From Escherichia phage ECO95 1-6-1, in sequence record OR845350.1: DNA of 3,167 nt, one strand, 5' to 3'. Positions 1-1,806 of the stretch are shown here, piece by piece (position 1 is the stretch's first letter; the number at the start of each line of letters is the position of its first letter). The translations under genes and the position numbers were made by a program. Below the pieces are notes generated by a model. The model was not told the origin of the DNA, made no database searches, and saw only the letters and a list, made by a program, of their open reading frames with translations.

Positions 1-1806
1 CTCCAGGCTTTGTGCCGACTGTTTGCATTTGATCCATCATTACGCCGTATTCAGCGCTCAGACTTCCATGTCCCGCACGATGAACAAGAAGCGCCCGAAG
101 AAAGGCAGTTATGGATTGAGGCGGACTTCGTTTTTCCCGAGTTGGAGGGTGAAGAAGATAACTCAAGCGTTGCTCCCCATTTCAGTCACATGCGCCTTGA
201 TGACCCTGACGGAATTCCTCGGGTACGGTATCGCCTAAGTGCCACTATGGGCCTAGATGGAGATATTGATGAAGCTTTCGTGTATGTGCTTGAAGTTGGT
301 CCGGACGGCTCACCTATAAATCCTGAAACAGTTCCTCGATCTGACCGAAATCACATACAAGTCCACTATCTGCCAGCCAGGAGAGATCCTACTGACCACA
401 TAGCATACGGAACGAGTGCGCTGCTTGGCCGCTTGCTACGTGCCGTGAACTGGGAAAATGAACGAGAAAAGGTCAAAGGGTTCACCGACCAGATTAGTGA
501 GAGCCTGGCTGCTAATTCATCGGTTAATGCTTTTAGCTCCCACCTGAAGAAAATATGGGGCACCCTCCATAAAGGCAGCTACTTTACAGATCCCAAGATT
601 ACTTTTGTGGCATCTGAGATCGAGGCGTTGCTTCGTCATTTGTCCGTATCATTCTCGCCTGGACATGATGACAATCTTGTCGATTTTTCTCGACTCAGTG
701 ACGGTCAGAAGTCGATGCTCTATCTATCGTTGGTTCTCTCATCTCAAGCTGTTGGTCGTGCTGTCCTTGCCGGTGAGGACGACTCTTTTGACCCTGAAAA
801 GTTGCGTCCGCCAGTCTTTACTTTAATAGCCCTTGAGGAACCAGAGAACAGCCTCTCACCTCACTATTTGGGAAGAATTGTTAACGCTCTTAACTCAATG
901 ACGAGTAACGAGGATGCTCAGGCCCTAGTCGCTACGCATGCTCCGTCGATGTTGCGACGTGTCGATCCGGAACATATTCGATATCTTCGACTTACTGAAA
1001 CCCGGCAATCAAGAATTAAGAAAATCCAATTACCCGCTAAAACCGATGAAGCGCACAAATTTGTACGTGAGGCTGTCCAGGCATTTCCTGAGATCTACTT
1101 CTCTCGTTTGATTGTGTTGGGTGAAGGGGATAGCGAAGAAATTGTATTACCGCGCCTTTTCCAAGCAAAGGGTGCGCCAGTTGATGAATCAGCGGTTACG
1201 ATTGCTCCGCTTGGAGGTAGGCATGTAAACCATTTTTGGCGTCTGTTATCCGAACTGCAAATCCCATTTTTGACTCTTCTAGATTTAGATGTGGGCAGAT
1301 ATCAAGCGGGCTGGGGAAGAATAAAGTATGTAAATAACCAACTTGGTTTGTATCAACCTGAAAAGGTACTACCAACTACTTTTTCTTTATCAGATTGGAA
1401 TGATGACAAAGTACCTGTTCGTACACATCATTTCTTTGAAAACGGCACTAAGAGTGTATTTTTAGAGCTGGAAACACGTGGTGTTTTTTTCTCATTTCCA
1501 ATGGATTTAGATTTTTCAATGCTTCTTGCTTTCCCTAATGCGTACGGTGTTCAGCAGGAGGTTTCAGATGAGTCTACGATTAAAGCCGTTTTGGGTAAGA
1601 GCCATCATGGCTCATACCAATACAGCGGAGACGAGTTAAATCTTTTCTCTACGTATCACAAGCTTTTTAAACTGGGTAGTAAGCCCGCTGCGCATATAGA
1701 TGCTCTTGCTCAACTGAGCAACGAGGAATTGCTGGCGAACATGCCAGGATCATTTGGACGACTTGCAGATGCCGTGATAGCCAAGCTTGCGGAGCTGCCC
1801 GAGTGA
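1..1806 (+). CDS. gajA: OLD-family ABC-type ATPase fused to TOPRIM nuclease domain (GajA-like / Class 2 OLD-like endonuclease); 5'-truncated by the window edge
   Basis: Frame 1 is open from base 1 to the TGA at 1804-1806; the TTG at 10 in the ORF track is not the true start. Motifs appear in ABC-ATPase order: signature-like LSDGQKS (694-714), Walker B VFTLIALEEPE (814-846), H-loop LVATHAPS (925-948). The TOPRIM region follows, with LIVLGEGDSEE (1108-1140, the EGDS-type catalytic glutamate motif) and a DxD motif LLDLDVG (1279-1296). No Walker A (GxxxxGK[ST]) occurs in the window, so the N-terminus lies upstream. Gene symbol is by architectural analogy only. Confidence 0.8.
   Translation, partial: LQALCRLFAFDPSLRRIQRSDFHVPHDEQEAPEERQLWIEADFVFPELEGEEDNSSVAPHFSHMRLDDPDGIPRVRYRLSATMGLDGDIDEAFVYVLEVGPDGSPINPETVPRSDRNHIQVHYLPARRDPTDHIAYGTSALLGRLLRAVNWENEREKVKGFTDQISESLAANSSVNAFSSHLKKIWGTLHKGSYFTDPKITFVASEIEALLRHLSVSFSPGHDDNLVDFSRLSDGQKSMLYLSLVLSSQAVGRAVLAGEDDSFDPEKLRPPVFTLIALEEPENSLSPHYLGRIVNALNSMTSNEDAQALVATHAPSMLRRVDPEHIRYLRLTETRQSRIKKIQLPAKTDEAHKFVREAVQAFPEIYFSRLIVLGEGDSEEIVLPRLFQAKGAPVDESAVTIAPLGGRHVNHFWRLLSELQIPFLTLLDLDVGRYQAGWGRIKYVNNQLGLYQPEKVLPTTFSLSDWNDDKVPVRTHHFFENGTKSVFLELETRGVFFSFPMDLDFSMLLAFPNAYGVQQEVSDESTIKAVLGKSHHGSYQYSGDELNLFSTYHKLFKLGSKPAAHIDALAQLSNEELLANMPGSFGRLADAVIAKLAELPE
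694..948 (+). other. C-terminal half of the ABC-type ATPase core of gene 1 (signature motif, Walker B, D-loop, H-loop)
   Basis: LSDGQKS at 694-714, VFTLIALEEPENSLSP at 814-861, ATHAPS at 931-948, read directly from the frame 1 translation. Confidence 0.6.
1108..1296 (+). other. TOPRIM catalytic core of gene 1 (conserved glutamate motif and DxD motif)
   Basis: LIVLGEGDSEE (1108-1140) resembles the TOPRIM EGDS glutamate motif of topoisomerases, primases and OLD nucleases. DLD at 1282-1290 is a candidate metal-binding DxD motif. Confidence 0.55.
1789..1794 (+). promoter_or_regulatory. Putative Shine-Dalgarno sequence (GCGGAG, GGAG core 1791-1794) for the helicase gene, embedded in the 3' end of the upstream gene
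   Basis: GGAG lies 8 nt upstream of the GTG at 1803. That GTG overlaps the upstream TGA stop (GTGA, 1803-1806), an arrangement typical of translational coupling. Confidence 0.4.

Follow-up and report, generated by a model that had tools for sequence, protein, structure and literature searches.

The question raised by this locus is how much of a protein lies beyond the edge of the sequence that was read. The window, by which we mean the whole 3,167-nucleotide stretch of DNA that was analysed, opens inside a gene for a GajA-like nuclease, and a long run of residues precedes the ABC signature motif with no Walker A in sight. An earlier note, made from the letters of the window alone, took this to imply a long N-terminal region upstream and an interval between Walker A and signature that is long relative to canonical GajA and might carry an extra module. 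We conclude, with a probability of about 95%, that window positions 1-1806 encode residues 41-641 of a standard 641-aa Gabija GajA, clipped 6 nt after its Walker A.

Extent and start of the gajA reading frame

As the earlier note had it, no stop closes the frame at the start of the window: frame 1 of the + strand is uninterrupted from base 1 to a TGA at 1804-1806 and supplies 601 window-encoded residues.

1-1806, + strand: coding sequence of GajA (Class 2 OLD nuclease), residues 41-641 plus the TGA stop

The window-encoded part matched the PADLOC profile for GajA, PDLC00097, with 1026 bits over profile positions 41-640 of 640, and since the match begins at position 41, the profile alone predicted that about 40 residues are missing. 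The missing sequence could be read in OX345320.1, a 20.4-kb linear contig of Salmonella enterica strain SV10192 labelled ‘plasmid: 134’, whose positions 1927-5093 are the window at 100% identity over all 3167 bases. This contig was the single identical record when the plasmid collection was searched with the window, and megablast found no match to it in 5,426 complete E. coli genomes.

On the contig, the gajA start ATG lies at 1807, 120 nt upstream of window base 1, and those 120 nt are the first 40 GajA codons, ATG and Walker A included. The N-terminus of the protein reads MKLHSIRISNFQSFGAEPIELTLENITYLIGPNGSGKTAA as far as the window edge, this upstream part coming from OX345320.1, and continues inside the window as LQALCRLF. 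Full-length GajA, from the ORF read in the contig, is 641 aa, in keeping with the expectation that it would exceed 598 aa. Its residues 1-641 matched PDLC00097 positions 1-640 of 640, end to end, with 1102 bits, and the GajA-like identity proposed at the outset is upheld. An in-frame TAG at 1789-1791 of the contig, 18 nt further upstream than the ATG, means that the ORF cannot exceed 645 aa. We considered an alternative TTG start four codons upstream of the ATG, which would give 645 aa, and rejected it because the conserved N-terminus of the homologues is M1-K-L. Shine-Dalgarno spacing at the ATG is not ideal (AGGAG 12 nt before, GAAGG 3 nt before), and a scan for promoters and terminators over 400 nt around the GajA start found neither.

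The Walker A motif lies upstream of the window, as had been anticipated.

OX345320.1 1897-1920, + strand: Walker A GPNGSGKT, residues 31-38, ending 6 nt (two codons) before window base 1

Its absence from the window was likewise confirmed, a strict and a loose pattern (GxxGxGK[ST] and [AG]xxxxGK[ST]) having found nothing among the 601 window-encoded residues. These observations bear directly on the reading in which the N-terminal region of GajA is unusually long, or the interval between Walker A and signature holds a module additional to the canonical dimerisation domain. That reading has in its favour the missing Walker A and the 231 residues ahead of the signature, and it can also point to the size of the protein, which exceeds Bacillus cereus GajA (578 aa) by 63 aa and the Class 2 OLD proteins of Xanthomonas campestris and Burkholderia pseudomallei (595 and 594 aa) by about 46. 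However, the part upstream of the window amounts to just 40 residues and the in-frame stop caps the ORF, and with the evidence on spacing and structure given below we regard the reading as extremely improbable. The long N-terminal region inferred by the earlier note is not there.

Motifs and domains of GajA

The window encodes the remaining motifs of the ATPase, followed by the catalytic core of a Toprim nuclease.

136-168, + strand: acidic loop PELEGEEDNSS, window residues 46-56, full-length residues 86-96, in the ABC ATPase N-lobe
367-387, + strand: Q-loop region YLPARRD, residues 163-169, aligning with Thermus OLD H140-R141-R142
391-639, + strand: helical insertion into the ATPase domain as predicted by the AF2 model, residues 171-253
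694-714, + strand: ABC signature LSDGQKS, residues 272-278, starting at window residue 232
823-846, + strand: Walker B LIALEEPE, residues 315-322, starting at window residue 275
937-939, + strand: H-loop His353
1123-1290, + strand: Toprim catalytic core, with Glu415 (1123-1125) in LGEGDSEE and the DxD motif D468-L-D470 (1282-1290)

Conservation was read from an alignment of close homologues (A1) and from a diverse set of 97 sequences at 31-95% identity (A2). Residues G31, N33, G36 and K37 of Walker A are invariant in A2. In the Q-loop region, which follows the assignment of H140 in Thermus OLD (PMC7049728), Y163, L164, P165, A166, R168 and D169 are invariant in A1, and R168 is invariant in A2 too. 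The signature stretch R271-S278 is invariant in A1 and its G275 in A2, and in Walker B, which lines up with E276 of Thermus OLD and E288 of B. cereus GajA, residues E319, E320, P321 and E322 are invariant in A2. Q-loop, signature, Walker B and H-loop are all present and collinear, in register with K34, H140 and E276 of the Thermus OLD motifs. The Toprim core matched Pfam OLD-like_TOPRIM (E 2e-15), with E415, E419, D468 and D470 invariant in A2, and further Pfam matches of GajA were to AAA_21, AAA_15, DUF2813 and SMC_N. All ATPase motifs and Toprim catalytic residues are intact and conserved in this GajA.

The number of in-frame residues that precede the signature within the window is 231; the long stretch described in the earlier note is therefore present, and its figure of about 228 was slightly off. 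The description of the region as acidic in places, with PELEGEEDNSS as the example, was accurate, the first 228 window residues being 16.7% D+E vs 10.1% K+R. The acidic loop itself is partly conserved, with a family consensus of FPELxxxEDNS; in A2 it is poorly conserved, its consensus being mostly ‘x’. Residues 91-110, in the acidic loop stretch, are the lowest-confidence part of the AF2 model (pLDDT 60-67).

Length and motif spacing within the family

We next set the length of GajA and the spacing of its motifs beside those of its relatives. Spacing counts were taken from alignments with structurally characterised proteins, and the anchors K34 and E276 of Thermus OLD are confirmed in PMC7049728.

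This GajA: Walker A to signature 235 residues (K37 to L272), Walker A to Walker B 282
B. cereus GajA: Walker A to signature 222, Walker A to Walker B 253
Thermus OLD: Walker A to signature 213, Walker A to Walker B 242
Diverse set A2 (n=97), length: range 632-706 aa, median 668 (this GajA 641)
Diverse set A2 (n=97), Walker A to Walker B: range 279-313 residues, median 290 (this GajA 282)

The distance of 235 residues agrees with the earlier minimum estimate of about 230 from Walker A to signature. The corresponding distances in B. cereus GajA (222) and Thermus OLD (213) argue against an unusually long region. The claim that the interval is long relative to canonical GajA holds marginally, in that it exceeds that of B. 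cereus GajA by 13 residues to the signature and 29 to Walker B; it fails within GajA's own clade, where this protein sits at the short end on length and spacing, with 97% of the A2 set equal or longer.

Among close relatives the layout is nearly fixed. At 75-95% identity, the top 120 homologues measure 619-648 aa, all except one of them 634-648 aa, and 119 of the 120 cover the protein over 100% of its length. Among 66 of these homologues, 65 have the Walker A lysine at residue 37; 64 have 235 residues from Walker A to signature, and 64 have 282 from Walker A to Walker B. When representatives at 50% identity were searched exhaustively with HMMER, 3330 relatives came out at E <=0.001 and 339 at <=1e-30, and for most of the full-length ones the alignment begins at residue 1-3 of both proteins. 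A length of 641 aa is modal for this GajA subfamily and falls inside the 545-752 positions spanned by the full-length PADLOC GajA profiles.

Judged from these sequence comparisons, GajA is modestly longer than the B. cereus prototype and is not long for its family, and the excess is not N-terminal. A distance of 210-240 residues from Walker A to signature is the norm in OLD, SMC and Rad50-type ABC ATPases, so a Walker A missing at the window edge says nothing of N-terminal length. The long spacing is the normal split-ATPase layout of these proteins, not an N-terminal extension.

The interval between Walker A and signature

The A2 profile aligned with B. cereus GajA over residues 1-534 (E 3e-22) and with Thermus OLD over 124-434 (whole-sequence E 6e-25), in each case as a single stretch. 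In the part from Walker A to Walker B, no gap exceeded 11 residues against B. cereus GajA, and the widest against Thermus OLD was about 20; these two widest gaps fall in the loop that joins the signature helix to the Walker B strand (about residues 297-312 of this GajA). Against B. cereus GajA the extra residues are scattered, which again speaks against a discrete additional module. Residues 196-233 aligned gaplessly with B. cereus GajA 186-223, a segment that includes I199 and I212, dimer-interface residues whose mutation abolishes defence (PMC10781630).

A first AlphaFold model, built on 66 close homologues at 75-95% identity, had a pLDDT of 64.8, with the insertion below 50, and was set aside for the insertion; its Foldseek TM-scores were about 0.3. 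The second, AF2 model, from the diverse 97-sequence alignment, reached pLDDT 88.2 and pTM 0.85. It places helices at 171-188, 192-210 and 213-229 and a short fourth at 247-251, all of them after the Q-loop strand (159-164) and ahead of the signature helix (274-296), with residues 230-270 weaker (pLDDT 69-80). Residues 171-253 are predicted from this model to be a dimerisation domain equivalent to the alpha1-4D domain of GajA and Thermus OLD, as that domain is described for OLD and GajA proteins (PMC7049728, PMC10781630). We looked for an extra compact fold unit in the AF2 model of GajA and none was evident.

The idea that the insert between Walker A and signature forms the dimerisation domain therefore stands in part. 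It fits about residues 171-253, so that some 80-100 of the 235 residues from Walker A to signature are insertion; the remainder is ordinary ABC N-lobe, Q-loop included. The further suggestion of an extra module in the insert did not survive alignment and modelling, the region being collinear with B. cereus GajA with gaps of at most 11 residues and modelled without an added unit. The earlier note had itself named three observations that would speak against its reading, and all three were made: Walker A and start codon close upstream, a protein of ordinary length, and an alignable insert.

In a Foldseek search of the PDB, the top matches of the AF2 model were GajA chains (8u7i_A, E 2e-24; 8x5i_D, TMq 0.60, TMt 0.68), followed by Thermus OLD (E 4.8e-22) and, next, retron Eco8 OLD; every one of these alignments spanned essentially the whole chain. 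Identity to the solved GajA and OLD structures is just 14-18%, and TM-scores are 0.55-0.68, not above 0.8, values that are expected for a flexible multi-domain monomer, yet are no proof of identical domain packing. After the Toprim domain, the model has a C-terminal helical region with helices at 543-638.

GajB and gene context

The gene that follows gajA in the window encodes a UvrD-like helicase.

1803-3167, + strand: GajB (UvrD-like SF1 helicase), residues 1-455 of 553, the gene being cut by the 3′ end of the window
1902-1925, + strand: GajB Walker A AGPGAGKT

The GTG start of gajB overlaps the gajA stop by 4 nt (GTGA). The window part matched the PADLOC profile PDLC00144 at E 2e-230, and the full-length protein of 553 aa in OX345320.1 at E 1.6e-273 (906 bits); Pfam matches were to UvrD-helicase and UvrD_C.

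This context weighs on whether the protein might instead belong to another OLD or ABC-Toprim system, namely a stand-alone Class 1 OLD, a retron Eco8-type Class 3 OLD or a PARIS AriA-like ATPase. In a single-sequence search the best PDB match was indeed Class 1 Thermus OLD (6p74, E 2.8e-11), and there were weak matches to PADLOC Old, AriA and mad3 and to NCBIfam retron Eco8 and PtuA. However, GajA profiles scored 1102, 863 and 479 bits vs 93 for Old and 77 for AriA, and the NCBIfam matches (MADS3, PtuA, retron Eco8) were all far below their cut-offs, with no GajA model among them. The GajB-matching helicase with its 4-nt overlap is the arrangement that defines Class 2 OLD/Gabija, and neither a reverse transcriptase nor an AriB gene is adjacent to GajA on the Salmonella contig or at the Shewanella locus described below. 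Class 1 OLDs, of which 6P74 is one, are stand-alone genes without a C-terminal helical domain (PMC7049728); here GajB is adjacent and the helical region is present, and the C-terminal region fits those of the X. campestris and B. pseudomallei Class 2 OLDs with a TMt of about 0.6. We consider membership of a non-Gabija system scarcely credible.

Shewanella xiamenensis carries the same two-gene cassette flanked by housekeeping genes; there too the overlap is 4 nt, GajA is 641 aa and GajB 548 aa, and the position of the cassette indicates that the gajAB module is self-contained. On the Salmonella contig, a fragment of an IetS-like S8 protease gene lies just upstream of gajA and an integrase-like ORF lies downstream. 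Positions 9000-13093 of OX345320.1 had no match in other plasmids. Positions 5400-13093 gave 749 matches at >=99%, all ranked below 44-bp matches; they must accordingly be short fragments.

Comparison with characterised relatives

The closest comparison is with the PDLC00097 subfamily itself, annotated at NCBI as ‘ATP-dependent nuclease’ or ‘AAA family ATPase’, which has the same length, K37, spacing of 235 and 4-nt overlap with GajB. Its member in S. xiamenensis (641 aa, 95% identical) is the closest relative and nothing material differs between the proteins; the cassettes differ in setting, ours being on a Salmonella contig labelled plasmid, beside the IetS-like gene fragment.

B. cereus VD045 GajA (578 aa; PDB 8SM3, 8U7I, 8X5I, 8JQ9) has the same order of ABC ATPase, helical dimerisation insertion, ATPase C-half, Toprim and helical domain, is also paired with a GajB, and was the top Foldseek match. 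It is 14-18% identical, and of the 63 additional residues of our protein, 13 fall between Walker A and signature and 16 between signature and Walker B, the others being in the Toprim and C-terminal parts. The motifs differ as well: Walker A is canonical GPNGSGKT here vs GMNDIGKT in B. cereus, and the signature is LSDGQKS vs TSGDGRR.

With the Class 1 OLD of Thermus scotoductus (6P74, 525 aa), GajA shares an ABC ATPase with an inserted four-helix dimerisation domain and a Toprim domain, and the Thermus Walker A, GPNGAGKT, is almost identical. GajA differs from it in the adjacent helicase, the helical domain, 116 more residues and a distance from Walker A to Walker B of 282 vs 242. The Class 2 OLDs of X. 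campestris (6NJV, 595 aa) and B. pseudomallei (6NK8, 594 aa) are adjoined by a UvrD-like helicase, as GajA is, and share with it the Toprim and helical C-terminal region (sequence E 1e-7 to 2.5e-11). They are about 46 aa shorter, and B. pseudomallei OLD is reported without the ABC signature that is invariant in this clade. Domain definitions throughout follow PMC7049728, PMC10781630 and PMC10568477.

Clade-specific additions

A refinement of the canonical GajA reading is that additions particular to this clade tune how GajB docks, how the protein oligomerises or how sensitive it is to phage inhibitors. There are two such additions: one of about 13 residues lies in the N-lobe and acidic loop around 86-113, the other, of about 16, in the loop 297-312 before Walker B, and both recur throughout the clade. 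A loop in the same N-lobe region of B. cereus GajA (K94, R97) contacts GajB, and the dimerisation domain of that protein is the binding surface of Gad1 (PMC10781630). The clade also keeps an invariant, near-canonical LSDGQKS, where the ABC signature is reported to be degenerate in Class 1 OLDs and absent in B. pseudomallei OLD (PMC7049728). On the other hand, the tuning is something we purely infer, and the acidic loop is poorly conserved across the diverse set and modelled with low confidence, so that we hold the refinement to be unlikely. There is a slim chance that the additions alter GajB docking or escape from Gad1-type inhibitors, and that the invariant LSDGQKS makes for a GajA more competent in ATP hydrolysis than the B. 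cereus prototype.

A standard Gabija cassette

On our preferred reading, a canonical Gabija GajA, the protein begins with the N-half of the ABC ATPase, running from Walker A (31-38) through the N-lobe sheet and Q-loop to about residue 170. The predicted helical dimerisation insertion (about 171-253), the signature (272-278), Walker B (315-322) and H353 follow, and then the Toprim domain (E415, D468xD470) and the C-terminal helical domain of Class 2 OLD proteins. GajA and GajB, whose start overlaps the gajA stop, would be co-transcribed. In B. cereus Gabija, GajA assembles into a tetramer by way of its insertion and an ATPase contact, four GajB bind to it, and nucleotides inhibit nicking (PMC10781630, PMC10568477). 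By homology, the GajA described here would tetramerise through the helical insertion and ATPase contacts and dock GajB into a 4:4 complex, and nucleotide at the ABC site would keep the Toprim nuclease off. Phage infection, through nucleotide depletion or the sensing of DNA ends, might then release DNA nicking and cleavage.

We are thus dealing with a routine Gabija (GajA-GajB) defence cassette. Its subfamily is very common and already known, with a model in PADLOC and annotations across many genomes. The seeming anomaly arose from the position of the window's cut and carries little biological weight. By homology to B. cereus Gabija, the cassette would be expected to form a GajA4:GajB4 assembly, with nicking regulated by nucleotide, and to protect against phage.

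Signature motif and gene junction of the GajAB cassette

The near-canonical ABC signature of GajA, LSDGQKS (window 694-714), is invariant across the clade to which the window's GajA belongs, and one residue of this motif, G275, is invariant even down to 31% identity. GajA of B. cereus differs from this clade, carrying TSGDGRR at the signature position. Among OLD proteins, the ABC signature has been reported as degenerate in Class 1 members and as absent from a Burkholderia Class 2 OLD (PMC7049728).

At the gene junction, the two reading frames share a few bases:

Window 1803-1806 (4 nt): GTGA, the GTG start of GajB overlapping the TGA stop of GajA

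This overlap implies translational coupling, and the GajAB locus of Shewanella xiamenensis (L002) has an identical 4-nt overlap at 9923-9926.

Genomic context of the cassette

OX345320.1 (L001), the Salmonella contig that contains the window sequence, is labelled 'plasmid: 134' in its assembly, and is 20.4 kb, linear and typed as non-mobilizable. GC content around GajAB is 39-49% in this contig, and Shewanella xiamenensis and Rheinheimera carry the nearest GajA relatives (94-95% amino acid identity). No other plasmid in PLSDB has the window DNA, nor does any complete E. coli genome. The plasmid label, and even the assignment to a Salmonella host, deserve caution, and the contig may be either a contaminant or an element gained by horizontal transfer. 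Two ORFs flank the cassette:

L001 2-1729, + strand: S8 subtilase ORF outside the window, 198 to 1925 nt upstream of its first base
L001 6366-7331, + strand: integrase-like ORF of 321 aa, ~1.3 kb past the 3′ end of the window

The downstream ORF matches Pfam Integrase_1 (PF12835, E 4e-11) and lies ~1 kb beyond the end of the gajB CDS (L001 5390), consistent with a mobile-element context. Hundreds of conjugative plasmids match a short piece of L001 5400-9000 (at least 99%, under ~44 bp).

The upstream ORF matches Pfam Peptidase_S8 (E 6e-67), and its frame is still open where it reaches the 5′ end of the contig. PADLOC IetS profiles cover it only from profile position ~257 onward, and the ORF appears to be the 3′ portion of an IetS gene, one half of the IetAS defence pair. 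If this reading is true, the IetA partner would be expected off the contig. No IetS-like S8 gene lies beside GajAB in the Shewanella locus. Should the ORF be a true IetS of an IetAS pair, there would be a small defence island around Gabija.
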